Assembly: GCA_045539595.1 (NCBI GenBank)
Contig: JAZQFQ010000074.1
Location: 1,482-65,481 of the forward strand
DNA: 64,000 nucleotides
Source: Eubacteriales bacterium
GTDB taxonomy: Bacteria; Bacillota; Clostridia; Oscillospirales; CAG-272
Direction: 5' to 3'
Position 1 is the first letter of the stretch, and each line of letters starts with the position of its first letter. A model generated the notes under the pieces. The model was not told the origin of the DNA. It was given only the letters and a program-made list of their open reading frames with translations, and did not search any database. The position numbers and the translations under genes are program-made. Positions 42,568-62,081 of the stretch are shown piece after piece.

Positions 42568-42648
<81 letters not shown>

Positions 42649-42649
42649 C

Positions 42650-42686
42650 AAGCCTTGGAATCATTCGGATTCTAAGGCTTTTTTCG
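42650..42686 (+). terminator. terminator just inside the island, downstream of the reconstituted tRNA
   Basis: AAGCCTT-G-GAATC...GATTC-T-AAGGCTT followed by TTTTT. Confidence 0.55.
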
Positions 42687-42751: not shown

Positions 42752-42832
42752 CGTCGGCGAAATGTCGGCGAAAGCGATTTTGGTGCCTACTCTTCCCTCT
42801 TTGCCGTCGGCTTAACCCGTCGGCTCGTCGGC
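42752..42832 (+). repeat. cluster of five (C/T)GTCGGC motifs near attL (candidate arm-type recombinase sites)
   Basis: CGTCGGCGAAATGTCGGCGAAA (42752-42773) is identical to 61724-61745. Further CGTCGGC copies lie at 42805, 42818 and 42826. Confidence 0.4.
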
Positions 42833-44391: not shown

Positions 44392-45540
44392 TCAACATCC
44401 CTCCTTTCCGCTGAAAAGAATCTCATCGATTCTGTCCCCGGCATCCTTCTGCATCTTAGTAGTACAATGGGCGTAAATATCCATCGTCGTGCTGATATTG
44501 GAATGGCCCATGCGATCCTGCACAGCCTTCATGGACACGCCACTCTCGATCAGTGCTGTAGCATGACTATGACGCAAATCGTGAAAACGGATATGTTCCA
44601 AATTGTGTGCATCAGTGAAACGCTGCCACTTGCATTTCCATGCCTGAGGATGATACGGTTTACCGTTCCACTGACGAATTACATAACCATCATCGTGGAA
44701 TAGAGATCCGTACTCCTCTTTGTCTGCTAAGTAACGCTCGTATTCCGCCAGCATCTGTTCCTTCATGCGCTCACCAAAGGTGATGTCTCTGATACTTGAT
44801 TCAGTCTTTGGTCTTTTCTCCACAACCTTACCATCCGCATACACACGATTGCGATGAATATGCATTACCTTATTCTCCAGGTCGATGTCGTCCCAGCGGA
44901 GAGCAAGCAATTCACCACGTCTGAGGCCTGACATCGATTCAAGGAGCAACGGGAAATACATATCCGTGTACTTAGCTGCTTCCAGCATAGCATTGATTTC
45001 CTCAGCCGTGTATATGTTATATCGAATCTTCTCTCGCTTAGGTAGCACAGTACCCTCGCAGGGATTATCGTTGATCATTCTCAGCGTCTTTGCTTTCTTC
45101 AGTGCGGCGTTAAGATTCATATACACGTTGCGGATGGTTTTGGCAGATAACCCATCCGCTTGCAGTTTATTGATCCAGCTTTGAATATGACTGTTCTGCA
45201 ATACCCTTAGCGGAATCTTGCCCAAAATGGGATCCAGATAGCGCTGTATCTGGCCCTCGTAATTGCTGGCCGTAGTAACGGATAAGTTCGTGCAGTACAG
45301 GGTCAGCCATTGATACATCCACGAAGATAATTGCATCGCGGATGTATTGACTACATAGTTGCCGCCGCTCACTGCCGCTACCAGGCGATCCTTCTCTGCT
45401 TCCGCCTGCCGTCTTGTTCCTTTGAATGTCTTGTATTCTCTGACACGTTCCCCGGTGATAGGGTCAGTACCACCTTCGATCGTGATCTGATATACGATGC
45501 CGTTCTTGGTTTTTCTTTCTCTTACATTACCTGATGCCAT
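44392..45540 (-). CDS. tyrosine-type site-specific integrase
   Basis: N-terminal AP2-like/SAM-like domains and a catalytic region 'RRGELLALRW', 'HDLRHSHAT', 'GHSNISTTMDIYAH'. Confidence 0.92.
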   Translation of the reverse strand: MASGNVRERKTKNGIVYQITIEGGTDPITGERVREYKTFKGTRRQAEAEKDRLVAAVSGGNYVVNTSAMQLSSWMYQWLTLYCTNLSVTTASNYEGQIQRYLDPILGKIPLRVLQNSHIQSWINKLQADGLSAKTIRNVYMNLNAALKKAKTLRMINDNPCEGTVLPKREKIRYNIYTAEEINAMLEAAKYTDMYFPLLLESMSGLRRGELLALRWDDIDLENKVMHIHRNRVYADGKVVEKRPKTESSIRDITFGERMKEQMLAEYERYLADKEEYGSLFHDDGYVIRQWNGKPYHPQAWKCKWQRFTDAHNLEHIRFHDLRHSHATALIESGVSMKAVQDRMGHSNISTTMDIYAHCTTKMQKDAGDRIDEILFSGKEGC

Positions 45541-47181: not shown

Positions 47182-48906
47182 CTACTGTAGGAAACGCACT
47201 ACGATTACGGCCACTGATTTATCGGCCTTAGTAATCTGTCTCTTGCGGTAGTTTTTATTGGCCTCATAGTCTAGATATCCTGCCGCCTTGAACTTTTTGA
47301 GAATCAATCCAGGATTGTTAAATTTGAGTTCTCTCATGATTTTGGGGAATTCGGTGGCAATAATATTTACCTCCATCCCGCCGCCATCAAGATGTTCGAT
47401 CTTACCCAGACAGGGTGCGCTACTTGACCATACGGAAGAACCATTTGTAATGAAGCGGCCAATATTCGCATTTACAAATCCTCTGAGTGCGTTGTAAGCA
47501 CGAAGTCCAATATCGGTATTAGCATCTGTGTTTACCTGTTGTTCGACAAGGAAGCCAATAATATCTTGCTTTGAAAACTCGATTTCAAGAGCATCCTCTG
47601 CGATATCGGCAACAGTCAGAAGAATCGCCCCAAACTCGGCCAACCGACGAATCGTTTTTGACTGACACCCGCCAGCACTAAGTGCGTTGGAGTATTCGGT
47701 CAAATTCTTTTCACGCAGGTTTGCTACAGCATGGTAAGTCATATTTTCAACGATGTACTGAGTAAATTTTGCACCTGCATGGCCATAGTTTTCATAACAG
47801 CCAGCAACAATCGCATCTGCCTGTTTTGAACTATCCGTAAACTCTGCACTGATTTCACAGACACGGACATTCAAACCTGAGTTTTGATTGTCAGCTTTTT
47901 CGAGCAACGACTCTTCACCAACAGAGAGGATATTCGTTCTGATAACGTTTGTCTTTTGCATCTCGGTTGGACTCAGCATACGGTCTTTGTCGGCACCGTC
48001 AGACAGAGTATAGATCGTTGATGTCAATCGATCAGTGGTTTCAACTTTTGACAGCTCGTCGTACACCATAAGTGTTCCATCCAAGCCATCGAGCTTACCA
48101 ATCAAAGCGTTTGACGTCCCTTTCCAAGACGAAAGCAATGATCGTAACGGGTTTCCATCCGGGCCACAGTATCTCGCGGTTTCAGCTGGATTAGGGCAAC
48201 CTATTACAGATGTTGCTGCAATAGCTGATGTCGTCTTTCCAGAACCGCTGTCACCCATGAAGTGAAAGATCAGATTTCTCGCACCCCATTCACAGGATAT
48301 TATTGGGCTCAGACCAATCAGTACAGCAATTTCAAGAGCAGGTCTTCCGATAATCCATTTGACCACCATGGATTTCCATGCCTCGTATGTACCTTTACGA
48401 CCTATATCATACGCTCCAACATAATCAGCACTCTCATTATCTCTCGAACTGCTGATTAGGCCAGGGCCCTTGAAGAACATGCGTTCCTTATCGGTGCCAA
48501 CATTCTCGATAAGCCAGCCTGTTCGGTGAAAGCACATGCCTTTTTCAGCTGAATCTTCTGACACTCTGAGGCAATTCATCAATGTATTGAGGCTAGAGTC
48601 ATAGACATCCGCATTACACTTGAGAAGAAGAGCCTGTACCTCTTTCTTTCTGCTCAAGAGTTCTCGAGACATATTCACAGTTTCTCTCGTTCCCTCCAAC
48701 GTATCAAAACCGATTGTAAGAATGGGAGAGCCTCCGTCAATGTCTTTTGAAACTCGATCAATTGCAACACGGCGACCGTATCCAACGAATTCAAACTCGT
48801 CTTCATCTTCCCCGGGTTCATAGCGACCGTACTGTTCGACGCCATCTACGATTCCATAGCCATACGAGGCATAAATGCTTTTGGATTTCTTTTTCTTTGC
48901 CATCAT
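47182..48906 (-). CDS. DUF927-type P-loop NTPase (phage/plasmid helicase-like replication protein)
   Basis: Walker A 'GDSGSGKTT' and Walker B-like 'LMVYDELSKV'. The N-terminal region is typical of DUF927 proteins. Confidence 0.78.
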   Translation of the reverse strand: MMAKKKKSKSIYASYGYGIVDGVEQYGRYEPGEDEDEFEFVGYGRRVAIDRVSKDIDGGSPILTIGFDTLEGTRETVNMSRELLSRKKEVQALLLKCNADVYDSSLNTLMNCLRVSEDSAEKGMCFHRTGWLIENVGTDKERMFFKGPGLISSSRDNESADYVGAYDIGRKGTYEAWKSMVVKWIIGRPALEIAVLIGLSPIISCEWGARNLIFHFMGDSGSGKTTSAIAATSVIGCPNPAETARYCGPDGNPLRSLLSSWKGTSNALIGKLDGLDGTLMVYDELSKVETTDRLTSTIYTLSDGADKDRMLSPTEMQKTNVIRTNILSVGEESLLEKADNQNSGLNVRVCEISAEFTDSSKQADAIVAGCYENYGHAGAKFTQYIVENMTYHAVANLREKNLTEYSNALSAGGCQSKTIRRLAEFGAILLTVADIAEDALEIEFSKQDIIGFLVEQQVNTDANTDIGLRAYNALRGFVNANIGRFITNGSSVWSSSAPCLGKIEHLDGGGMEVNIIATEFPKIMRELKFNNPGLILKKFKAAGYLDYEANKNYRKRQITKADKSVAVIVVRFLQ

Positions 48907-49030
48907 TTTGTCCTTTCTTTGATCCATGTACCACACAGCGTACGGAGAGCTGTGGACACAACGTATTTACTTTCCAATGAACATTCTGCGAGCGCTCACG
49001 GGGCCAGAGCCCCCTAATTACTCGTTGCCT

Positions 49031-50930: not shown

Positions 50931-51275
50931 ATGCTATACAGATTCAGCACCACCCGCGAAATCCACGAATCAGCCTCACGCTTCCAGGCGGAAGTAGTAA
51001 CTGCGCTGTTAACTAGTACAGCGGCCATTGAACGTGAATATGCTTCTGACCGAGATTGCCGGGAAACGGGTGGTTACTCTATCGTGGTAGAAACCACAGA
51101 GGATCTTTCGGCCTTACGTGAGATTGTAAACATTGACACGCATCCCTGCGAATGGGCAACGCGATTAGGAGCGTCAGGGTTTGTTTCCGCGCTCTACGTG
51201 ATTAACAACAATCTCACAATTATGCTCTGCATTCCGGAATGCATCGCCCCGCCGATCATAATGGATGAACTATAA
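50931..51275 (+). CDS. hypothetical protein (114 aa)
   Basis: ATG lies 7 nt after GGAGG. No family recognised. Confidence 0.55.
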   Translation: MLYRFSTTREIHESASRFQAEVVTALLTSTAAIEREYASDRDCRETGGYSIVVETTEDLSALREIVNIDTHPCEWATRLGASGFVSALYVINNNLTIMLCIPECIAPPIIMDEL

Positions 51276-51306
51276 TGCCAATTTATATAATGAAAGGAAC
51301 ACCACT

Positions 51307-51891
51307 ATGAAGACCATCGAAACCACCCTTACCACCACCGCTTTTTTCTCGGAGGATGGTAGTCGCAAATACCTAATTAAGAAAAGTTGGGATTTAACCA
51401 AACCTTCGCTCACAATTGTGCTGCTTGCTCCCAGCACAACCTCGGGAATCGCACTAGACAATACTACGCAGCGAACCATAGGAAATGCAGATCGGCTTGG
51501 ATTCGGTTCTGTAAGCATTGTCAACCTATTTTCCAGCATGGATGAATTAACAAGCGCCTCTGCTGTGGATGAAGACCCTGAAAATATGAAAATGATCGTT
51601 GCTGAGGCAAAGAAATGTGACGTTTTGGTATATGCCCCCGGAAATGGTAAGGCCAAGAACCCGGTTTTCCAAGCACGTGCAGCACAAGTACTAAAGCATC
51701 TGAAACCCTTTGAGAAGAAAATGAAGTGCCTTTCCAACGAGGACGGCTCCATCAGGCTGCGGCATCCACTCTACCCCGCTGTTCGTACCTGGTATCTTAG
51801 TGACACCACGGTCGATGAGGCAATGCAGACGATAACCGATGCCCAAATGCCTCCCAAACCAATTGGCAGACCAAGGAAAACGCAACAATGA
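51307..51891 (+). CDS. DUF1643 domain protein
   Basis: 'RKYLIKKSWDLTKPSLTIVLLAPS', 'VNLFS', 'VLVYAPGNG' and 'LRHPLY' fit the DUF1643 pattern as I recall it. ATG at 51307 follows GAAAGGA. Confidence 0.68.
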   Translation: MKTIETTLTTTAFFSEDGSRKYLIKKSWDLTKPSLTIVLLAPSTTSGIALDNTTQRTIGNADRLGFGSVSIVNLFSSMDELTSASAVDEDPENMKMIVAEAKKCDVLVYAPGNGKAKNPVFQARAAQVLKHLKPFEKKMKCLSNEDGSIRLRHPLYPAVRTWYLSDTTVDEAMQTITDAQMPPKPIGRPRKTQQ

Positions 51892-51987: not shown

Positions 51988-52401
51988 CTAGATGTTAATG
52001 GGCGACACATCCATACTGTCAATCTCCTTTATCAGCTGCTCACTCCAATTACGGAGGGTTTCAGAATCATCATAGAATTCAGGATCAAAAAACAGCATCA
52101 TGTATTTCATCATCTGATCTTCAGTGAGTGAGATAGGATGCGTGTCCTTATCGACTGCAACGACGTAGAACACACCTGATATAATCTCCCCTTGTACCAT
52201 CCTGTTAGCATCGAGTCCCGCAAAGAATGCATCAGGAGCGTACAGGATGTAGACATCCTTTCCTATTTTTTTGGCAACAGCACGCAGTTCTTCATCAGCA
52301 CCAATGCTTACTGCCCGGTTAAAAGCATCCACACTTGCTTCAACCGTAGTGATGCTCGGCGTATGCATAGGTGCGACCGCTAAACACTTTATTTGTCTCA
52401 T
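51988..52401 (-). CDS. DUF3846 domain protein (second copy in the island)
   Basis: 'CLAVAPMHTPSITTVEASVDAFNRAV ... GVFYVVAVD' parallels 42900..43286. ATG at 52401 follows GAGGT. Confidence 0.68.
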   Translation of the reverse strand: MRQIKCLAVAPMHTPSITTVEASVDAFNRAVSIGADEELRAVAKKIGKDVYILYAPDAFFAGLDANRMVQGEIISGVFYVVAVDKDTHPISLTEDQMMKYMMLFFDPEFYDDSETLRNWSEQLIKEIDSMDVSPINI

Positions 52402-52409
52402 ATCATACC

Positions 52410-52613
52410 TCACTCCAGGGGAAGATACGCCCTGCCAGGATCCGCCAGTAACCTTTCAAACGCTTCCCTATCGGTATATATGCGTCCACCTATGATCTTC
52501 GTCTTGTCAGGTAAGTAGCGTTTCAAAAGCCACCGTATTCTCTTCTTGCTCAGCGGAAGATACATCTGATATATATCATCTACACTGATAAATCTTCTCT
52601 TTGCTTGGGTCAT
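52410..52613 (-). CDS. small HTH_17-like DNA-binding protein (67 aa)
   Basis: 'ISVDDIYQMYLPLSKKRIRWLLKRYL...IGGRIYTDREAFERLL' is an excisionase-like pattern. Confidence 0.5.
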   Translation of the reverse strand: MTQAKRRFISVDDIYQMYLPLSKKRIRWLLKRYLPDKTKIIGGRIYTDREAFERLLADPGRAYLPLE

Positions 52614-52930: not shown

Positions 52931-53020
52931 AACCGGCTCCTTTACAAATAATTTCAGCTACGGCCAACTGTGGTCAACCGTAGCTGATTAATTATTTGTT
53001 GAGTTGGAGGGTAGCGGTCA

Positions 53021-54502
53021 CTATAGTTGCTTTTTCAACTCTTGAAAACTCTCCAAAGCACTCTGCAAATTCTCGATAATGTCATCAGCAAGAACATCGG
53101 GATCGGGGAGATTATCAAGATCAGCGAGTGACTTGTCTTTAATCCAAAAAATATCAAGACTTGTCTTATCGCGCTTCAAAATTTCATCAACACTAAACTT
53201 ACGCCAACGTCCATCGGGATTTTCTTCCGACCACGTTTCCTTGCGCTCATGGCGATTTTCGGGATTGTAGCAGGCGATAAAATCTTGTAAATCGGCATCA
53301 CTCATCGGGTGCTGCTTAAGCGTAAAGTGAATATTGGTTCGGAAGTCATAAATCCAAATTTCCTTGGTCTGCCTATCGGGACTTGCAGGCTTTTTATCAA
53401 AGAATATAACGTTAGCCTTTACGCCTGGCTTATAAAAGATACCAGTAGGCAGACGAAGAATTGTATGCAGATCGGTAGTCTGCAACAGCTTTTGACGAAC
53501 AGTTTCACCCGCGCCACCCTCGAAAAGAACGTTGTCGGGAACGACGACTGCTGCCTTGCCCGTTGCTTTCATAATCGTATTGATGTGCTGAACAAAGTTA
53601 AGCTGTTTGTTGGAACTTGTCGTCCAGAAATCCTGACGGTTATATACGAGCTCTTCTTCCTCTTCCTCGCCTTCCTCATTGGTCATCGTGATGGATGATT
53701 TCTTGCCGAAAGGTGGGTTGGTGAGCACGTAATCCACGCGATAACCGGGATCGGTCAAAAGTGAGTCACCTTGCATAACAGGAATGTTACCGTAAATATC
53801 GCCGATATTGTGGAGGTAAAGGTTCATCAAAGCCATCTTGAAGGTGGTTTTAACAAGCTCGTTACCATAGAAGGTTTCGTTTTTGAGAAATTCCTTCTGT
53901 TCTCTATCCAAAGTGTAGTTATCGGGGTTAGTTAAGAACTCTTGTGCAGCAAGGAAGAAACCGCCGGAACCGCAGCAGGGATCAGCGATTGTTTTTCCGG
54001 GTTCGGGGCGCAGACACTCCACCATTGCGCGAATCAAAGGACGGGGCGTGAAATACTGACCTGCGCCACTCTTGATATCTTCCGCGTTCTTTTGGAGCAA
54101 TCCTTCGTAGATTTCGCCCTTTACGTCGGAGGACATCGAAACCCATTTCTCTTTGTCGATCATCTGTACAATACGGAAAAGAATTGCCGCATTGCTGATT
54201 TTATTGCTTGCCTGTGAGAAGATCTGACCGAGAATACCGCCCTCATTTGCAAGCTTTTCAAGCGTTTTCTTGTACTGTTCTTCAAGCTCTGCTCCTTTGA
54301 GCGTATTCATATCCGACCACGTATATCCCTCGGGAATGCCGGTGATCTTCTTATAAGGCGGCTTGGAATACTCATCCGACATCTTCAAAAAGATGAGATA
54401 TGTAAGCTGTTCAAGATAATCTCCGTAGGATACACCATCATCGCGAAGCGGCGCACACATCCCCCACACTTTAGAGATTATTGTTGTTGATTGTTCTGAC
54501 AT
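53021..54502 (-). CDS. hsdM: type I restriction-modification system, DNA methyltransferase subunit
   Basis: HsdM N-domain 'YLEQLTYLIFLKM', SAM motif 'DPCCGSGGF', and catalytic 'NPPFG'. ATG at 54502 follows AAGGAGAA. Confidence 0.93.
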   Translation of the reverse strand: MSEQSTTIISKVWGMCAPLRDDGVSYGDYLEQLTYLIFLKMSDEYSKPPYKKITGIPEGYTWSDMNTLKGAELEEQYKKTLEKLANEGGILGQIFSQASNKISNAAILFRIVQMIDKEKWVSMSSDVKGEIYEGLLQKNAEDIKSGAGQYFTPRPLIRAMVECLRPEPGKTIADPCCGSGGFFLAAQEFLTNPDNYTLDREQKEFLKNETFYGNELVKTTFKMALMNLYLHNIGDIYGNIPVMQGDSLLTDPGYRVDYVLTNPPFGKKSSITMTNEEGEEEEEELVYNRQDFWTTSSNKQLNFVQHINTIMKATGKAAVVVPDNVLFEGGAGETVRQKLLQTTDLHTILRLPTGIFYKPGVKANVIFFDKKPASPDRQTKEIWIYDFRTNIHFTLKQHPMSDADLQDFIACYNPENRHERKETWSEENPDGRWRKFSVDEILKRDKTSLDIFWIKDKSLADLDNLPDPDVLADDIIENLQSALESFQELKKQL

Positions 54503-54513
54503 TGTTTTTCTCC

Positions 54514-55536
54514 TTATCGAATGGGTACCTTTGAAATGCTTACCTTTGTGTCGCTTAAACCGTTGCTGCTCAAAAACCACTGTAGTTCTTTTCGGTTTTG
54601 CACACACGTCGGTCCTAATATTATTTCTGGAATAACACCAGATCCCCAAATACTGTCAAGACAGAGATTATGATAACTTCTGATTCCAGCATTTGACATC
54701 ATAAAATGCTTTTCTCTGATTTGAAGGATATCTACAAGATTGTTAAATGCATCTTCATAATCGGTGAGCTTAGCTGTCTCCAAGTCATTTGCCATTGACT
54801 TGATCAATTTTTTCGTTTCCAAAATGGATTCAGTTTCAAAATAGAGTCTAACTTCATCTTCATCGATAAAACTGTTGTTTTTCACAAACTTCATGATATT
54901 TTGATATACAGCTGCCATATACACAAATCCGCCTCTATCAATAACTTTGATAGGGTCAATCTGGGGATGATCCTTGGTTGATTTTGTGAGTGTATTTATA
55001 TAATCGACAGTTTTGTTCCTAATAGTGTGCGTTAATGCATCTGATGTATAGAGCGTTTCAGCTATATCAAATAAGCTCATTCCGAAGATGTAGTTATTTG
55101 TTCTCCAATACAATACATCTAATGCAGCAACATTAAATCCGATGCAAACTCCGGAACAATTTGCTGCGTATCTATCCCAGTGAGTGAGATTGTCCCTTTT
55201 TTTTGATAAACATAGTGCATACGGAGTATGCCTTGATTTACATTCCTTCTCAAATCTCTTTTTGTTTTCATCAATATTGCTAATCAGCCGTTTAAAGCAA
55301 CGTTTCGTATTTTCATCCTTTTCATTCTCGTAAACAAACGTAAAATCTGATATAAACCTTTCAAAATTGTATGACAACTCCTTGCTGTCATTTGATGAAC
55401 GTAGGCTGGTCATTCGAAATGTTTTACTATTAACAATATTAAATAATGTTTCCAAAGAGGTATAATGATAGTAAACTCGAGGTGAAACATTTTCAATTTG
55501 ACTGAAGTAGTCTATTTTGTTTTCTCTTTTATTCAT
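54514..55536 (-). CDS. DUF2971 family protein embedded between hsdS and hsdM
   Basis: 'YYHYTSLETLFNIVNSKTFRMTSLRSSNDSKE' is the DUF2971 N-terminal signature as I recall it. ATG at 55536 follows GGGAGAG and overlaps the hsdS 3' end by 8 nt. Confidence 0.72.
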   Translation of the reverse strand: MNKRENKIDYFSQIENVSPRVYYHYTSLETLFNIVNSKTFRMTSLRSSNDSKELSYNFERFISDFTFVYENEKDENTKRCFKRLISNIDENKKRFEKECKSRHTPYALCLSKKRDNLTHWDRYAANCSGVCIGFNVAALDVLYWRTNNYIFGMSLFDIAETLYTSDALTHTIRNKTVDYINTLTKSTKDHPQIDPIKVIDRGGFVYMAAVYQNIMKFVKNNSFIDEDEVRLYFETESILETKKLIKSMANDLETAKLTDYEDAFNNLVDILQIREKHFMMSNAGIRSYHNLCLDSIWGSGVIPEIILGPTCVQNRKELQWFLSSNGLSDTKVSISKVPIR

Positions 55537-56677
55537 TCAACAACTCTCCCTCAAATGCTCTTTTCAAAATGCTCTGTCGCATAGCTTCGGCTTGTTGCAA
55601 AGCGGTGTCAACTGTTTCTTCGATACTGTCACAAACAGATAAGCGAGATTCTATTATACCCAGCACTGCGTCTGCTTCTTCATCGGAAACTACAGGAACT
55701 CTCGAATCGCGTATGTCATCCAGCCCGAGTCCGAGCTTTCCTGCTCCTCGCTTGTTTTTCAACAGATCTTTTTGTCCCCAATCGCTTCGCAAGTACCAAG
55801 CCATAAACTTTCCTTGTGCCGAATTCTTAAATCTCACAACAGCAATATGCTGATTTATATAGGCTTCACCGATATTATTAGGTACAAGTCCTATACTACC
55901 AAGATCTGCCGTAATAGAGACTAAAACATCATTTGGCTGTAATTTAGAACGCAAACCTTCTGCTTTGTCCGGCAAATCAACATATTGAGTATCGCTAAAA
56001 TCAATATCAATAGAATCTCTCGTCAAATTCCCAATACGAATAAATTTAGCTCCCTGAGGTGCATAGTATTTCGCCCATCCTCGTGATCCACTTGTTACCA
56101 ATGTTGACATTTCTCGTATAGGTGAAAGCTTTTTACATCTTTCAAAAGCCTCTTTTAGTACTGCCTGACGATACACCGAAAGCTGTTGCTTTGTCTTTTT
56201 CAGCGTTTCAACGCCGTTGTCAAGTTCGGAGAAAAGTTCTTCGATTTTTGCGACAACGCGTTTTTGCTCTTCAAGCGAAGGAACAACAAGCTTTTGTTGG
56301 TTCAATATATTAGCATCAAGGTGGGGAGTACCCGTACCTTTCTTTTTTGTATTCAGCAATGCATACTTACCCTGCAAAAAATAATACAAGTATTCTTGCG
56401 ACATACCGTCCGCTGATATAATTGCTAATGTTGACCCAACATACCCATCAATAGCTTTTCCAACAAACCCAGATCGAGAACCGTCGCAGACAATCAGTAT
56501 ATCTCCAGCTTTGCAGGGCAAACATTTCTCGCCATCTGTGTACATTTTGACATTGCCGGTTTCAAAAGCCTCAATATCCACATAAGGCATATATCCATCT
56601 TGAGGCTTATCCGTTTGTCGTAATGGTTTTTTGCCTTTTTTTATGTGTGATATAGTGCCAAATTCAATAAGATTCAT
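55529..56677 (-). CDS. hsdS: type I restriction-modification system, specificity subunit
   Basis: Two TRD-like halves are separated and followed by conserved helices: 'LEEQKRVVAKIEELFSELD', and 'AVLGIIESRLSVCD...ALQQAEAMRQSILKRAFEGEL'. Confidence 0.88.
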   Translation of the reverse strand: MNLIEFGTISHIKKGKKPLRQTDKPQDGYMPYVDIEAFETGNVKMYTDGEKCLPCKAGDILIVCDGSRSGFVGKAIDGYVGSTLAIISADGMSQEYLYYFLQGKYALLNTKKKGTGTPHLDANILNQQKLVVPSLEEQKRVVAKIEELFSELDNGVETLKKTKQQLSVYRQAVLKEAFERCKKLSPIREMSTLVTSGSRGWAKYYAPQGAKFIRIGNLTRDSIDIDFSDTQYVDLPDKAEGLRSKLQPNDVLVSITADLGSIGLVPNNIGEAYINQHIAVVRFKNSAQGKFMAWYLRSDWGQKDLLKNKRGAGKLGLGLDDIRDSRVPVVSDEEADAVLGIIESRLSVCDSIEETVDTALQQAEAMRQSILKRAFEGELLNE

Positions 56678-56694
56678 ACGCACGTGACCTTTAT

Positions 56695-57117
56695 CTATAT
56701 TATGGTTCTTCTTCCGGTATTTCCAATGGCGGCAATAGCTTCACGATTAGCAATATCCGCTTTTCTCTTCTTCTCGTTGTCATAATTTCCGCGTGATTGA
56801 CAATGCGGACAAGTAAATGTTCCGTCGTTGTGACAGTTTATCTGTATCAGCAACTGCTGGCTATCCCAACAATGAGAGCAATAGTATAAATTTTTTGTGT
56901 CACCTTCTATGGTAACAACGGGTTCTTCATGACGAATAACCTTTTCGGAAATATCTTTTGATTTTCTTAAAGCGGCGTTTTCTTCACGCAAACGTGCTAC
57001 CTCCGCTTGTAAATCCAGTGCCTGTGCACTTAAATCAAGCAACTGACGATATAATTCCACATTATCTGCTTTTTGCGCTACACTTATAGCATCTTTAAAC
57101 GCATCATAAAAACTCAT
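56695..57117 (-). CDS. coiled-coil plus zinc-ribbon protein (140 aa), function unknown
   Basis: Heptad-like 'LLDLSAQALDLQAEVARLREENAALRK' followed by 'CSHCW ... CPHC'. ATG at 57117 follows GAGGAA. Confidence 0.68.
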   Translation of the reverse strand: MSFYDAFKDAISVAQKADNVELYRQLLDLSAQALDLQAEVARLREENAALRKSKDISEKVIRHEEPVVTIEGDTKNLYYCSHCWDSQQLLIQINCHNDGTFTCPHCQSRGNYDNEKKRKADIANREAIAAIGNTGRRTII

Positions 57118-57120
57118 TTA

Positions 57121-58074
57121 TCATTCCTCATCTTTCTCTACGGCATTGTTTTTTAACTCAATAATATGATTTATTTCATATGCCAATTGAACCAGCATAT
57201 CTATGGTAAGAATTGCTTTAAGCGAGTGTTCTTTTGTTCCAAAATTTAGTTGATCGCCATGACATATTTTATTTCTAAGAGGCTGGGTCTCCCATCGTTT
57301 TTTAGAGTCAGAGGAACATAGGATTTCTTTTTGGAGATAGTCTGCCATCGCTTCCCAAAATAGTTGTCCGCTTTCTGTCATTGCTGTCATTTGTAGCAAT
57401 TTGCCTTTTTCCTTATCAACATCTTCAAGCGCAATTTTAAAATAATCTGCTATGATTCCTTTTTCTTCGTCATCCAATTCCAAACCGTTCTTCTTTGCTA
57501 AACAAACAATATCAGAGGCAACACCATATATTTGACACATTAGTATTGATGTTGATGCGTAGTAATAGGCATTATCGTGCATTAATATTGCTTCGGACAA
57601 AACCACTTTTCGTTCCTCGCAAATTACAGGACAGTTATTCCAATCGTTCTCAATTGTAGTTAAAAAATCCTTCGTACAATAGTTAAATATAATGTCTTTT
57701 GCTTTTTCTGCATCCTTCTCATCAGTGCATGCATTCAAAATGCTCTGCCTTAAATTGTCATCGTCAATCAAAAAAATGGGCCATTTTAACTGTTGCAACA
57801 AATTAATATATTTGATTGGAATTATAACTTCGCTAAATTCTTGAATAAGTGGCTTAAAATCGATGGCTTTGATGGTTTCCGCAATCCTATTTCCAATATT
57901 GATAGCAGATTGCATGGCATCGCTATAATATGTGGAAATAACGACTGAGCTTAATTTTTGCATAGCCATTGATAATGCTTGCAATTGGGAAGAGTACGAT
58001 GTTTTAGAGATTTTTTCAAGAGCTTGTGTTGAAAGTTTTATTGATTCTAATTCGCTATCTTTTTTATTATCCAT
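57121..58074 (-). CDS. unknown 317-aa protein with a C-terminal Rx4H (HEPN-like) motif
   Basis: Its ATG directly abuts the hsdR stop (TAAATG). 'PLRNKICHGDQ' lies about 50 aa from the C-terminus within predicted helical sequence. The domain assignment is tentative. Confidence 0.65.
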   Translation of the reverse strand: MDNKKDSELESIKLSTQALEKISKTSYSSQLQALSMAMQKLSSVVISTYYSDAMQSAINIGNRIAETIKAIDFKPLIQEFSEVIIPIKYINLLQQLKWPIFLIDDDNLRQSILNACTDEKDAEKAKDIIFNYCTKDFLTTIENDWNNCPVICEERKVVLSEAILMHDNAYYYASTSILMCQIYGVASDIVCLAKKNGLELDDEEKGIIADYFKIALEDVDKEKGKLLQMTAMTESGQLFWEAMADYLQKEILCSSDSKKRWETQPLRNKICHGDQLNFGTKEHSLKAILTIDMLVQLAYEINHIIELKNNAVEKDEE

Positions 58075-60813
58075 TTACGCTACCAATTCTACATTCATTT
58101 CCATCAAAATCGCTTCATACTTGTCTCCGAACACCTCATAGAACCGTCCGAGACCACCTTTGCGATCAAAAGGATTAAGGTCAAGGTCGCTCGTTTCAAT
58201 GCTCAAAGATACGGCAATGTGGTCTTTGACAAGACGAAGCCACTCCATCTGTTCGTCCGTGAAATGTACCGCACCCGCATTGCGACGGAGCGTCCATTGC
58301 ATAAAGTTATAGTTCACTCTGTCTGCAAAGGGCGCAAGATTTTCAGTATATCCCATTTCAAAACGAATGATGGATATAAGGTCGGACAATTGTGCCATCG
58401 TACCACGCTTTACTCTTTCGGGTTTCTTAATGGCATAACAGTCCCACAGACGCTCCACGGTGATGCCCTTGGCTTTCAGCTTGTCGTATAGAGCCTTCAA
58501 TCCATCAATCGCCATCGGGCGGTCTTTATATTTTTGATCGTAGATGATACGCAGGGCGATAATTTCATCTCTGTTCTCGTCAATAAACTGACGGAAAGAA
58601 GATATAACACGGTCGGCATTTTCCTCTTGCTGTGAATCAAATCCGGCAAACAGAACTTCGTCAAGATTTACGTTGTCAATAATCTGCTCGTGACTGCGGC
58701 GCACATTCTCAATGTAATCGCGCACATCGGGATTTTGAAAAGGAGCAACTGCCTCAATCGCCAATGCAGTCTTTGCTTCGGCAATTTGCTCGTCAGTAGG
58801 TTCTGCGGTTGCAAACTGCTCCCGTGCCTTGGTGAGAATTGCATCCTCATCAAAGGCATTCAAAAGCTTCTCAGCGATCTGACCTGCGCTATCGCCGACT
58901 TTTTCTGCAAACTCTTTTTTTTCGCTCGGAGTCATCTGACTATTCAAACGAATAACACGGTTTGCAAGAGAGGTGAGCGTGTCCTCACTCTTATCACCAA
59001 GAGCAACGTTCATCATAAGTTCTCTCATACTGACAGACGGCTTGCGCTCGAGTGTACGGGTATCAGATTTCTTGGATTTCGTAACGCCTACAGCATCCAC
59101 TATAACAAAATGGTCTTTGTTATCGGTTGCGGAGGGTGTGACCTTTTGGAGATCGTCCTTGGAGAGTGTTCTCGTTCCACGACCTTTCATCTGCTCAAAA
59201 TAGTTCTTGCTACGCACGTCACGCATAAAGATCAAGCACTCAATGGGCTTAACGTCTGTACCCGTTGCAATCATATCAACGGTAACAGCAATGCGGGGAT
59301 AGTAGTCGTTGCGGAAAGAACTTAACACGCTCTCGGGATTATCTGCGGAATAAGTAATCTTTTTGCAAAACTCGTTGCCCTCACCAAATTCCTCACGAAC
59401 GATTTGAATGATATCATCTGCGTGGCTATCGGTTTTAGCGAAGATCAGAGTTTTCGGCACTTCTTTACGACGAGGGAACAAGGATGTAAACATATTTTCC
59501 TTGAACGTGCGAATCACAGTGCGGATTTGGCTTGGATTTACAATATCACGGTCAAGTTGAGAAGGAGTATAGTCCACATCCTCGTCCAGCTGTTTCCAAC
59601 GCTTTTCACGAGACAGACGGCTACGCACCTCTATCATTTGCTTCATAATATGCGTTGTGTTTTTGCCTATATTGGTTTCAATGAGGAAGATATCCTCGCC
59701 TACATTTACACCGTCAATAATTGCTTGTTCACGGGGATATTCGCTAACCACGTTCTCATTGAAAAACGCAAATGTACGCTTATCGGGCGTTGCAGTCAGA
59801 CCGATAATAAAGGAGTCAAAATATTCAAGCACCTGATTCCACACGTTATAAATGGAACGGTGGCACTCGTCAACGATGATGCAGTCAAAGAACTCCGGCG
59901 GATATTTCTCGTTGTAAACCACCTCTTTAGGTGCTTTAGAGTCTGCCGTTACAAACTCATTGAACGAGGTTTCCTCGGCGGATTCATCGAGTTCGTCACC
60001 TTTGAGGATAGAATACATTCTCTGAATGGTGCTGATGCAGATCTGCACACCATCGGGGATATATGAGGATTTGAGTCTATGTACACCATAAATCTGTGAG
60101 AAGGGGCGTTGATCATCTGTAGGCTTATAAGCCAAGAATTCACGCTCTGCCTGCTCGCCTAGGCCTTTTGTATCAACCAGGAAAAGAATACGGTTCATTT
60201 TGCCGTATTTCAAAAGTCGGTATGCCGCAGTGATAGCAGTAAACGTCTTTCCGGCACCCGTTGCCATCTGCACTAATGCTTTGGGGCGATTATCGGCAAA
60301 GGATTTATCAAGATTTTCGATAGCGGCAATCTGACACTTACGGAATCCCGAAGGATCGAACTTCGGAAAGCTCTTCATATTGTTCCGAACCGTATCTACC
60401 TGCTTCAAAAGAGCGTTCAGTGTTTCGGGACGATGAAAGGAAAATACCGTTCTTGAACGATATTTAATATCATTATAATCGGTAAAGCGAGTGAGTTTGT
60501 CCGTCGCTTCGTATGCAAAGCGAATGCGGTAAATGCTTTTGATCCACTTGAACGTGCTGTTCGCATAGCGAGAAGACTGCCCCTCGACGGCAGTAATATT
60601 CTCACCAGCTTCGTTTTTCTTCGCCTCGATTATACCTACGTGCACCCCTTCTATGAAAAGAGCATAATCCACAGGGCCGGTACTCGTGGGAAATTCTCTA
60701 ATGGCAACACCAAGTGAAGCCGACAGATTTAAAGCTTTGACATCTTGGATTACCCATCCAGAATCCACTAATTTTCTGTCAATTGTTAATCGAGATTTTT
60801 GCTCAGGCGTCAT
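58075..60813 (-). CDS. hsdR: type I restriction enzyme, R subunit (912 aa)
   Basis: N-terminal PD-(D/E)xK 'VDYALF...GIIEAKK', SF2 motif I 'TGAGKTF', motif II 'VDECHRS', and a C-terminal helical domain. Confidence 0.93.
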   Translation of the reverse strand: MTPEQKSRLTIDRKLVDSGWVIQDVKALNLSASLGVAIREFPTSTGPVDYALFIEGVHVGIIEAKKNEAGENITAVEGQSSRYANSTFKWIKSIYRIRFAYEATDKLTRFTDYNDIKYRSRTVFSFHRPETLNALLKQVDTVRNNMKSFPKFDPSGFRKCQIAAIENLDKSFADNRPKALVQMATGAGKTFTAITAAYRLLKYGKMNRILFLVDTKGLGEQAEREFLAYKPTDDQRPFSQIYGVHRLKSSYIPDGVQICISTIQRMYSILKGDELDESAEETSFNEFVTADSKAPKEVVYNEKYPPEFFDCIIVDECHRSIYNVWNQVLEYFDSFIIGLTATPDKRTFAFFNENVVSEYPREQAIIDGVNVGEDIFLIETNIGKNTTHIMKQMIEVRSRLSREKRWKQLDEDVDYTPSQLDRDIVNPSQIRTVIRTFKENMFTSLFPRRKEVPKTLIFAKTDSHADDIIQIVREEFGEGNEFCKKITYSADNPESVLSSFRNDYYPRIAVTVDMIATGTDVKPIECLIFMRDVRSKNYFEQMKGRGTRTLSKDDLQKVTPSATDNKDHFVIVDAVGVTKSKKSDTRTLERKPSVSMRELMMNVALGDKSEDTLTSLANRVIRLNSQMTPSEKKEFAEKVGDSAGQIAEKLLNAFDEDAILTKAREQFATAEPTDEQIAEAKTALAIEAVAPFQNPDVRDYIENVRRSHEQIIDNVNLDEVLFAGFDSQQEENADRVISSFRQFIDENRDEIIALRIIYDQKYKDRPMAIDGLKALYDKLKAKGITVERLWDCYAIKKPERVKRGTMAQLSDLISIIRFEMGYTENLAPFADRVNYNFMQWTLRRNAGAVHFTDEQMEWLRLVKDHIAVSLSIETSDLDLNPFDRKGGLGRFYEVFGDKYEAILMEMNVELVA

Positions 60814-60895: not shown

Positions 60896-61114
60896 TTATG
60901 TTGTTCCATTCTCTTCCGGAACAAATTCCATAATATCATCCACACCGCAATTAAGTGCACCGCAAATCTTACCAAGTATCTCCACGGTAACATTCTCGCC
61001 TTTACTCATTTTGGTAATGGTATAATTGCTAATATCTGCTACTTTTGCAAGGTCTTTTTTCTTCATATCAAGATCAATCAAAAGCTTCCAAAGCTTTTTA
61101 TAACTCACAGCCAT
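60896..61114 (-). CDS. small XRE-family HTH regulator (72 aa) upstream of hsdR
   Basis: 'LLIDLDMKKKDLAKVADISNYTITKMSKGENVTVEILGKICGALNCGVDDIMEF'. ATG at 61114 follows GAGGTG. Confidence 0.78.
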   Translation of the reverse strand: MAVSYKKLWKLLIDLDMKKKDLAKVADISNYTITKMSKGENVTVEILGKICGALNCGVDDIMEFVPEENGTT

Positions 61115-61282
61115 AACGCACCTCATACTACTCATTTTCACAATGCTGTTTTTATAACTTAATTGTACCATGGACAACAGTCAAAAATCAATACAAATCG
61201 AGGCTTCTCTAAATTAATTTTAGCGATTGCAATCCAGCCGTGGGGCAAAAAAAGCGCACAGTACTGATAGGGCCCCCTATTA

Positions 61283-61723: not shown

Positions 61724-61745
61724 CGTCGGCGAAATGTCGGCGAAA
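61724..61745 (+). repeat. 22-bp repeat near attR, identical to 42752-42773
   Basis: CGTCGGCGAAATGTCGGCGAAA in the same orientation as the left-end copy. Confidence 0.4.
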
Positions 61746-61806
61746 ACGACGCCAAAAAAGCCTGATGAAATCGCTTGGTTCGCCATCCTGTGGCCAAAAT
61801 AATCTC

Positions 61807-61855
61807 CTCATAACCCGGAGGTCGTGAGGTTCAAATCCCACCCCCGCAACCAAAC
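61807..61855 (+). repeat. attR: displaced 3' part of tRNA-fMet (49-bp direct repeat)
   Basis: Exact identity with 42600-42648. No tRNA 5' half lies upstream of it. Confidence 0.85.
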
Positions 61856-61857
61856 AA

Positions 61858-61892
61858 AAGAAACAGACCCTATTGGGTCTGTTTTCTTTTGT
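61858..61892 (+). terminator. terminator following attR (probably the original tRNA operon terminator)
   Basis: AAACAGACCC-TATT-GGGTCTGTTT followed by TCTTTT. Confidence 0.6.
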
Positions 61893-62059
61893 TCAGCTGA
61901 GATTTGATCTATCTCCACGACCTCCGGAGGAGGGAGTGGGTAAGCAAGTGAAAACGATTGAGTATCGTTTTCACGCCGCGATACCCCATAAAGCAAGGAG
62001 TATGGCAAGCCGAGTACATCGAGGCGAAGGCAGACGACTATGCGACTGGGGAGGGCCTT

Positions 62060-62081
62060 TCAAATCCCACCCCCGCAACCA
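62060..62081 (+). repeat. third, partial copy (22 bp) of the tRNA-fMet 3' end
   Basis: TCAAATCCCACCCCCGCAACCA is identical to 42624-42645 and 61831-61852. Confidence 0.5.

Follow-up and report, generated by a model that had tools for sequence, protein, structure and literature searches.

It is already established that defence genes can be embedded in type I restriction-modification (R-M) operons, as is the case of PrrC, of the genes collected by guilt-by-embedding and of the RptR-RMS-DarTG island (RMS, R-M system). Extra genes between the hsd genes include prrC itself and, in Campylobacter, rloA and rloB, which lie inside the hsd loci. PrrC is almost exclusively R-M embedded and more than half of the embedded genes are unassigned (bioRxiv 10.1101/2024.01.29.577857). 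In the same work, Payne et al. put forward uncharacterised genes that lie within type I R-M or BREX loci as defences, and several of them were confirmed (bioRxiv 10.1101/2024.01.29.577857). The RRDM island of enteropathogenic E. coli E2348/69 contains RptR, a type I RMS, an embedded DarTG2 and an M48 peptidase; it has proven anti-phage activity, and its authors describe the site between the hsd genes as a hotspot at which defence systems recombine (PMC12255303). Here we describe an operon in which hsdR, hsdS and hsdM are interleaved with three extra genes (orf317, orf140 and a DUF2971 gene), located on a 64,000-nt stretch of contig JAZQFQ010000074.1 (GCA_045539595.1), which we call the window and whose positions are used throughout. 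Our best explanation, to which we assign a probability of about 60%, is that this is a mobile R-M operon with exchangeable predicted defence cargo.

RRDM is the closest characterised locus. Both loci are seven-ORF, horizontally acquired units with a small helix-turn-helix (HTH) regulator upstream of a type I R-M system, and both carry an ADP-ribosyltransferase-type system embedded between hsd genes. However, the transferase of the window is a single DUF2971 gene between hsdS and hsdM with no DarG-like antitoxin, two further unrelated genes separate hsdR from hsdS, an M48 peptidase is lacking, and the regulator is an HTH_26 protein that is likened to RptR by position and size. Furthermore, the loci related to the window come from metagenome-assembled genomes (MAGs) of Clostridia/Eubacteriales and Fibrobacter, not from Gammaproteobacteria. 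The window locus differs from the known ones in cargo, gene order and phylum, not in kind, and the architectural novelty implied in a preliminary description of this DNA was overstated, given that guilt-by-embedding is published and that RRDM provides a functionally tested parallel.

The proposal draws on a comparison with orf317 relatives found in GTDB genomes, one RefSeq plasmid and metagenome contigs. The layout hsdR, orf317-like gene, (0-1 gene), hsdS, (0-2 genes), hsdM was present in at least 8 independent loci (Clostridia, Fibrobacter), and with this recurrence the arrangement cannot be put down to chance. The relatives have a common backbone (HsdR 69-95% and HsdM 80-98% identical), and the genes between the subunits vary (Table 1). 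In L001 and L011, in which HsdR is 94-95% and HsdM 97% identical to the window proteins at the amino-acid level, the limits of the variable segments could be located on the DNA. Homology to L001 spans 60814-56963, stops, and restarts at 54496-53028. In L011 the breaks fall precisely on the hsdR stop (58075), on 55542 (hsdS stop) and on 54513, so that the edges of the DUF2971 cassette are marked by breaks at 55542 and at 54496/54513 (hsdM start). Judged from these alignments, the backbone has two precise slots, A from the hsdR stop to the hsdS start and B from the hsdS stop to the ribosome-binding site of hsdM, through which unrelated cassettes would be exchanged.

Table 1. Genes found between the hsd genes in the window and in related loci.
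Locus	Slot A (hsdR to hsdS)	Slot B (hsdS to hsdM)
Window	orf317 + orf140	DUF2971, 340 aa
L001	orf317 + orf140 homologues	461-aa + 276-aa proteins
L011	orf317 + orf140 homologues	678-aa AAA_21/AAA_15 ATPase
L002	orf317-like only	189-aa membrane protein (PycTM-like, 2.7e-5)
L099	orf317-like only	empty
L004	orf317-like only	239-aa protein
L005/L006	orf317-like + 313-aa gene	253-aa protein
L098 (Pusillibacter pMM59_01)	orf317-like + 262-aa gene	191-aa + 233-aa proteins
L009/L010	orf140 homologue only	divergent DUF2971, 358 aa

Since homology breaks at hsd start and stop codons and the cargo differs from locus to locus, the inserts are not R-M subunits; in fact, that they could be subunits is ruled out by the exchange of cassettes in near-identical backbones. 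These comparisons indicate that the three inserts are separable and independent cargo, in which orf317 and orf140 do not form a pair. The preliminary description was supported on three points: the type I enzyme can do without the three extra genes, the inserts behave like embedded cargo of a sort that has time and again proved to be anti-phage defence, and genes related to them turn up again in type I R-M, BREX and other defence loci of unrelated genomes. Closely related backbones have other genes or none in the slots. According to our proposal, all three inserts would most likely be extra, mechanistically different anti-phage layers. Free exchange at the slots, and the truncated or fused state of some relatives (P0116 and P0118 stop short of the Rx4H motif described below), would also fit selfish hitch-hikers (addiction modules, or cargo in decay) from which the host gains nothing at present. 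We consider this the least probable of the explanations, and a very improbable one, as the three window ORFs are full length for their families and keep the invariant residues, their ribosome-binding sites and overlaps are intact, and one member of the DUF2971 family has proven anti-phage activity.

Other occupants of slot B were also observed. A family of 239-253 aa is found there in Clostridiales and Fibrobacter (L004 11930-12649, L005 3740-4501, L006 12873-13634), with an N-terminal motif (C)HVAFLDILGFKN that is loosely reminiscent of nucleotidyl-cyclase/GGDEF-type motifs; it had no Pfam or PADLOC match and represents a further unassigned embedded candidate. In L001 (6183-8402) the slot taken by DUF2971 in the window contains the 461-aa and 276-aa pair, the second of which begins with a CxxC motif, and neither protein matched any family. 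Moreover, in L009 (9693-12233) and L010 (7196-9736), which have the layout hsdR, orf140, hsdS, DUF2971, hsdM, a gene for an 846-aa GmrSD-type (type IV restriction) protein directly follows hsdM and adds to the defence stack.

With respect to the backbone itself, HsdR matched ResIII (5e-37), Helicase_C (8.7e-7), EcoEI_R_C (2e-37) and, weakly, HSDR_N (2.2e-4) in Pfam, and REase_I (3e-47) in PADLOC. HsdS matched Methylase_S in two stretches (1.5e-21; Pfam) and Specificity_I (2e-49; PADLOC), and HsdM matched N6_Mtase (9.4e-69) and HsdM_N (2.6e-10) in Pfam and MTase_I (9.6e-188) in PADLOC. From these domains, the R, S and M genes encode an intact type I R-M enzyme. HsdR scored below the cut-offs of the NCBIfam EcoAI/FtnUII equivalogs (178.7 versus 550 bits for NF046051 and 360 versus 729 for PRK11448) and, as it shares only the EcoEI_R_C domain, we describe it as having an EcoEI-type C-terminal domain and do not assign it to family IB. 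The Pfam and PADLOC scans agreed with the domains that had been assigned from the sequence to the hsdR, hsdS, DUF2971 and hsdM products.

The six genes are packed on the minus strand in the order and at the coordinates that had been described (Table 2), as confirmed by the ORF listing, and each of the tight junctions was also confirmed when the minus strand was read. The orf317 start abuts the hsdR stop (TAAATG at 58077-58072), and the orf317-orf140 junction consists of TGA, 3 nt (TAA) and ATG. There are 11 nt from orf140 to the GTG of hsdS or 17 nt to its ATG, hsdS and the DUF2971 gene overlap by 8 nt, and 11 nt containing a GGAG separate the latter from hsdM. The longest ORF of hsdM reaches 54649, but the ATG with the GGAG ribosome-binding site is at 54502. 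The preliminary description was right about these six genes and missed both a seventh one, coding for an HTH_26 protein (domain match 8.6e-18), and the tRNA-Met island described below. A homologous small HTH gene is directly upstream of hsdR in L002 and L099/L100 as well, and the HTH_26 protein is likely the transcriptional controller of the operon. Given the terminator after hsdM and the HTH gene with its promoter-like site, the unit would comprise seven genes, from about 61.19 to 52.95 kb; an inverted repeat with a T-run at about 61300-61245 is read as the terminator of the gene upstream. HTH controller, hsdR, orf317, orf140, hsdS, DUF2971 gene, hsdM and terminator probably form, in this order, one transcription unit, and the three inserts would ride on the transcription of the operon. 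Judging by position and size, the HTH_26 gene may correspond to RptR, which represses type I R-M islands and has TAGCTA-type operator sites.

Table 2. Features of the operon and of the island that carries it (window positions).
Feature	Position	Strand	Description
hsdR	58075-60813	-	restriction/translocase subunit, 912 aa, EcoEI-type C-terminal domain
orf317	57121-58074	-	slot A cargo 1, all-alpha (model), R267-x4-H272-G273 motif
orf140	56695-57117	-	slot A cargo 2, coiled coil + C4 zinc ribbon (predicted)
hsdS	55529-56683 (GTG start) or 55529-56677 (ATG start)	-	specificity subunit, two target-recognition domains
DUF2971 gene	54514-55536	-	slot B cargo, 340 aa
hsdM	53021-54502	-	type I methyltransferase subunit, 493 aa
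HTH_26 gene	60896-61114	-	small XRE/HTH_26 protein, 72 aa from ATG preceded by a GAGG ribosome-binding site; upstream of hsdR
promoter-like site	61162-61191	-	TTGATT and TG-extended TACAAT, spacer of 18 nt; precedes the HTH gene; candidate from consensus scan only
intrinsic terminator	52954-52987	-	15-bp stem, 7 G-C pairs, T-rich tail; 34 nt past the hsdM stop
attL, left boundary	42600-42651	+	52-nt direct repeat over the tRNA-Met 3' end
attR, right boundary	61807-61858	+	second 52-nt copy of the tRNA-Met 3' end, 98% identity
tyrosine integrase	44392-45540	-	Phage_integrase 3.7e-29, Phage_int_SAM_3 2.7e-12
DUF927 + Cch-HTH protein	47182-48936	-	DUF927 4.7e-30, HTH_56 1e-15

The whole operon is on a 19.2-kb integrative island inserted at tRNA-Met (gene at 42568-42645), and the GC content falls from ~55% to ~43% from the left boundary onward. 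Besides the integrase, the island codes for a DUF927/Cch-HTH protein that, from what is known of DUF927/Cch proteins generally, presumably has a replication (primase/helicase-like) role. An Rfam scan of the window gave two tRNAs and nothing else.

Among the three inserts, the DUF2971 protein is the closest to a validated defence. The DUF2971 protein Aristaios (316 aa), encoded on a lactococcal plasmid, is an experimentally validated single-gene abortive-infection system with an ADP-ribosyltransferase fold (PMC11381338) and interferes with phage transcription (PMC13064643). DUF2971 has been placed beside DarT and AbiGi, with a conserved tyrosine in motif II and an ExE in motif III (PMC12522546), and the PDC candidates, PDC-S31 among them, were taken from genes that lie inside BREX, DISARM and type I R-M systems (bioRxiv 10.1101/2024.01.29.577857). 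The window protein exceeded the cut-off of PF11185 (38.5 bits vs 22, E 3.1e-9), matched phrog_1762 (3e-22) and matched four PADLOC PDC-S31 models (3.2e-7 to 2.2e-4) with partial coverage, at about residues 61-159. In a small alignment of four proteins, Y123 (motif II) and E226-x-E228 (motif III) were invariant, with H24 in motif I. The preliminary description stated that none of the three inserts matched a characterised system; this was wrong for the DUF2971 gene, with its PDC-S31 match at 3.2e-7 and the domain of Aristaios, and in PADLOC it holds for orf317 and orf140, which matched no model. Aristaios and the window protein are both encoded by a single gene, are similar in size (316 vs 340 aa), belong to PF11185 and have a predicted ADP-ribosyltransferase fold, but Aristaios is plasmid-borne and stands alone whereas the window gene is embedded in an R-M operon. 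A tblastn search of PLSDB plasmids gave no Lactococcus match at E <=1e-3, so the Aristaios plasmid is absent there or the proteins are too divergent. The membership in the family is shown by these matches, and on this basis we predict that the protein is a DarT-like ADP-ribosyltransferase of the Aristaios/PDC-S31 kind, which would consume NAD+ in modifying its target, either nucleic acid or protein, and in this way abort the infection.

No match to orf317 was found in Pfam, PADLOC v2.0.0 or NCBIfam, and PHROG only gave sub-threshold noise or PHROGs of unknown function. RefSeq names the Pusillibacter homologue 'hypothetical protein', tblastn gave no match in annotated phage genomes and only 'hypothetical protein' entries in plasmids, and none of 10 clusters carried a name at its source. 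The family is nevertheless sizeable, with at least 850 clusters (50% identity; E <=1e-3). In 50 members that are 19-30% identical to orf317 the only invariant columns are R267, H272 and G273, and every member has R-[N/H]-x3-H-G followed by Q-x-N-[F/Y]-G-T-x-E-H-S-L-K, orf317 itself having R267-N-K-I-C-H272-G273. HEPN RNases are metal-independent and have an Rx4-6H signature in which the residue next to the arginine is usually polar (N, H or D); their core is a set of four up-down helices with the signature close to the start of the last one, and their active sites are usually formed where two subunits of a dimer meet. The AlphaFold2 (AF2) model of orf317 is all-alpha (mean predicted local distance difference test score, pLDDT, of 82), with the motif in a loop that leads into the last long helix (281-316). 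Its best Foldseek match in BFVD was a phage DUF4209 protein (E 8.1e-3, probability 1.00, template-modelling scores 0.46/0.53). DUF4209 is the C6orf70 HEPN family, whose HEPN domain is predicted to be catalytically active, and its bacterial members occur in R-M related operons (PMC3710099). The orf317 family therefore shares with C6orf70/DUF4209 an Rx4-6H motif, R-M related operons and the best structural match of the model, but none of its members matched PF13910 in HMMER even at E <=10, and the link consists of a single Foldseek match to a predicted structure. Csm6, the archaeal HEPN homologue 1wol and AbiV were among the top matches of the model in PDB, which were not significant. All these data make orf317 a predicted HEPN-like RNase, with the chances evenly balanced. 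If so, it would most likely be a normally latent HEPN-type RNase that cuts RNA once an infection is sensed.

Attempts to bridge the family to DUF4209 or HEPN by sequence failed with 30 + 50 members, seven isolated C-terminal domains and viral or distant homologues. Nor did a database search that started from the L105 phage homologue link the family to DUF4209 or another HEPN family, and profiles A1 and A3 retrieved from PDB sequences only low-complexity helical proteins, via the N-terminal region. The L105 homologue (19-1449, on a viral contig) is a distant relative that has a C-terminal RNMVLHG and lies near ORFs resembling phage structural genes; its N-terminus contains tandem repeats of ~30-40 aa (RSVQYG...ASALEAFRSKDLAxALEASKA). 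P0116 and P0118, in alignment A1, are truncated or fused relatives that end before the Rx4H motif. In P0118 a full HaeIII-type endonuclease (PF09556, 1.8e-140) is fused to an orf317-like N-terminal half; we dropped it as an informative fusion because it stops before the motif and is probably a remnant near a type II system or a gene-calling fusion.

The genomic contexts of the family bear on how orf317 might be controlled. In at least 8 distinct loci a member directly follows an EcoEI-type hsdR with a gap of 0-11 nt. Other contexts were stand-alone HTH fusions, isolated genes, a helicase/tubulin element, two viral contigs and a position after a WYL regulator and a 1568-aa helicase/nSTAND3 protein. 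As its start is translationally coupled to hsdR, orf317 may be restrained by the R-M complex or answer its failure, as PrrC does. One alternative is a PrrC/RloC-style guard, silenced by the bound type I enzyme and freed as an RNase when an anti-restriction protein disables the enzyme, in which R-M and orf317 would be one integrated two-layer machine and not independent modules. The TAAATG coupling, with the 0-11 nt gap kept in all embedded homologues, fits this idea, as do the restriction of the embedding R-M loci to one EcoEI_R_C-type clade (HsdR 69-95% identical), the Rx4H motif that is also found in the nuclease domains of PrrC and RloC, and the almost exclusive embedding of PrrC in type I R-M. 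However, the orf317 family also occurs alone, fused to HTH, by a helicase/STAND protein and on viral contigs, closely related R-M backbones lack orf317, and orf317 lacks the ABC-ATPase domain that is present in PrrC and RloC, and the guard is for us an unlikely alternative to exchangeable cargo. Extra genes between hsd genes and an Rx4-6H-type nuclease motif are likenesses to PrrC, RloC and the rlo genes, but no ABC-ATPase or P-loop was found in orf317 by Pfam, PADLOC and NCBIfam scans or in the helical model, it has no PADLOC PrrC match and, unlike PrrC, its family is also found outside R-M loci. A membership of orf317 in the PrrC/RloC family was rejected, since without the ABC-type ATPase domain only embedding and motif are in common.

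The second gene of slot A, orf140, has at least 459 homologues in the database (clusters at 90% identity). Its alignment (A2) has a mean column identity of 67%, with Y4, K8, Q15, A17-D18-N19, L22-Y23, C80, C83, C103 and C106 invariant, and the AF2 model consists of a long helix, a zinc ribbon and a C-terminal helix. It had no match in Pfam, NCBIfam or PADLOC v2.0.0, only noise or unknown-function PHROGs in PHROG, and no tblastn match in annotated phage genomes. Together with orf317, it differs from the guilt-by-embedding candidates in that neither matches any PADLOC v2.0.0 model. A DksA/TraR-like protein was considered from the coiled coil, the CxxC-x19-CxxC and the C-terminal helix, and was rejected as there was no Pfam zf-dskA_traR match and no DksA fold match.

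We analysed the contexts of orf140 in 80 metagenome loci, which form 35 clusters at 90% identity; 3 of them had too little upstream sequence and 32 were informative. In 8 of the 35 the gene lies ~15 nt after an EcoEI-type hsdR without orf317, in 3 it is at the same site with one gene intervening, and in 21 it is elsewhere. Among these other places are BREX loci, in which the gene follows the PglX-type methyltransferase (in L044 PglZ lies downstream); further type I and IIG-like R-M loci, and an HSDR_N_2 + N6_Mtase enzyme accompanied by an AAA_21 ATPase; a locus with the order AbiH, orf140, RhuM; and sites next to a second AAA_21 ATPase, a serine recombinase or a weakly HipA_C-like protein (E 2.9e-4, below the Pfam cut-off). 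As it is found without orf317 in R-M, BREX and AbiH contexts, orf140 is an independent defence-associated module and not an obligate partner of orf317. With low confidence, it may be an adaptor, sensor or regulator; more specifically, although speculatively, a dimeric adaptor, sensor or regulator that binds nucleic acid or protein in modification-based immunity (type I R-M, BREX).

In several BREX loci (L044 369-5504, L045 3330-9455, L052 7-3327) the orf140 homologue and a ~100-aa gene follow the PglX-type ORF, and downstream there is a separate ORF beginning MGRLISEKYAAWQAECE. The MGRLISEKYAAWQAECE ORF may have been detached from the methyltransferase, in which case PglX would be split or switchable and the cargo would occupy the gap.

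The same contexts speak to a possible two-gene system in which orf317 and orf140 would act as toxin and antitoxin or sensor, analogous to HEC-08, whose HEPN DUF3644 and zinc-ribbon-like domains are in one polypeptide (bioRxiv 10.1101/2024.01.29.577857). HEPN-like and zinc-ribbon elements are indeed common to both, the gap between the two window genes is only 3 nt and they are also adjacent in L001, L011/L012 and L029; the window genes are, however, separable. Embedded orf317-like genes lack orf140 in L002, L004, L005/L006, L098 and L099, orf140 follows hsdR without orf317 in 8 of the 32 informative clusters and is also present in BREX, AbiH and other contexts, and the orf140 family shows far stronger conservation than that of orf317. 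In fact, a test of co-occurrence failed: besides the window the two are together in 4 distinct loci, with orf317 alone in at least 5 embedded loci and orf140 alone in 8 + 21 clusters. A pair is rather improbable, being more probable only than the hitch-hikers, and the treatment of orf317 and orf140 as a unit in the preliminary description did not survive, as each is found far more often without the other than with it.

Alternatively, orf140, and possibly orf317, would not be a defence effector but an accessory or regulatory factor of modification-based systems that controls, for example, their assembly, their expression or the alleviation of restriction as the mobile island arrives in a new host. 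The small size of orf140, its lack of an enzymatic domain, its 67% mean column identity and its position within ~15 nt after hsdR or the PglX-type methyltransferase in many loci are compatible with this role, and since the operon is on an integrative island a control of establishment would be useful. Against it, many R-M backbones of the same clade (L002, L004, L099) do without orf140, the gene is also found away from methyltransferases, beside AbiH/RhuM, AAA_21 ATPases and a serine recombinase, and it has no DNA-binding HTH and no match to known controllers. We regard this role as doubtful. A more ambitious version, which we find similarly hard to favour, would make orf140 the founding accessory factor of type I R-M and BREX (a zinc-ribbon sensor of anti-restriction inhibition, or a tuner), orf317 a new HEPN RNase family kept latent by the EcoEI-type complex, and the operon an integrated three-tier machine.

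Several observations weigh against our proposal of exchangeable defence cargo. The motif of orf317 is in a lower-confidence loop of the model (pLDDT 62-70), the Foldseek search of PDB was not significant (best E 1.4), and no Pfam HEPN family, including PF13910, PF12358 and PF13643, was matched by ~90 members at E up to 1-10, so the HEPN call rests on a short motif and one predicted-structure match. About half of the orf317 contexts seen had no recognisable defence gene alongside. The window DUF2971 protein is just ~18-27% identical to other DUF2971 proteins. Finally, the conservation of orf140 is unusually high for a defence gene and fits a regulatory or housekeeping-like role just as well as defence, and a Foldseek search of PDB with its model gave no informative fold match, only generic zinc-ribbon ribosomal proteins at E >0.9.

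With these reservations, the window carries an intact, mobile and composite locus of predicted defence, in which one insert belongs to a validated family and orf317 and orf140 are good but unproven defence candidates from unnamed families. The locus is a clean example of a defence hotspot within a type I R-M operon, with boundaries that are nucleotide-exact at the hsd codons, and it points to two sizeable families, unnamed in Pfam, NCBIfam and PADLOC v2.0.0, that are found repeatedly within immune loci. Should these families prove to protect against phage, they would add an RNase-type and a non-enzymatic component to the immune repertoire, and orf140 could reveal a function common to type I R-M and BREX. 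The DUF2971 gene would extend Aristaios-type defence to loci whose closest relatives here are in Clostridia/Eubacteriales MAGs and human-gut metagenome contigs. Current concepts are unchanged by these results, which supply concrete and testable candidates.

Some minor features of the island were also recorded. Just downstream of the R-M operon it encodes a DUF1643 protein (51265-51891; 4e-23) and a DUF3846 protein (51988-52413; 3.7e-6). A separate 26-nt repeat, at 42752-42777 and 61724-61749, is located just inside both ends and may be an arm-type site of the integrase. Moreover, a third copy of the tRNA-Met repeat, of 23 nt, is present at 62059-62081, 229 nt further on, which suggests that it is the remnant of a second, tandem integration.

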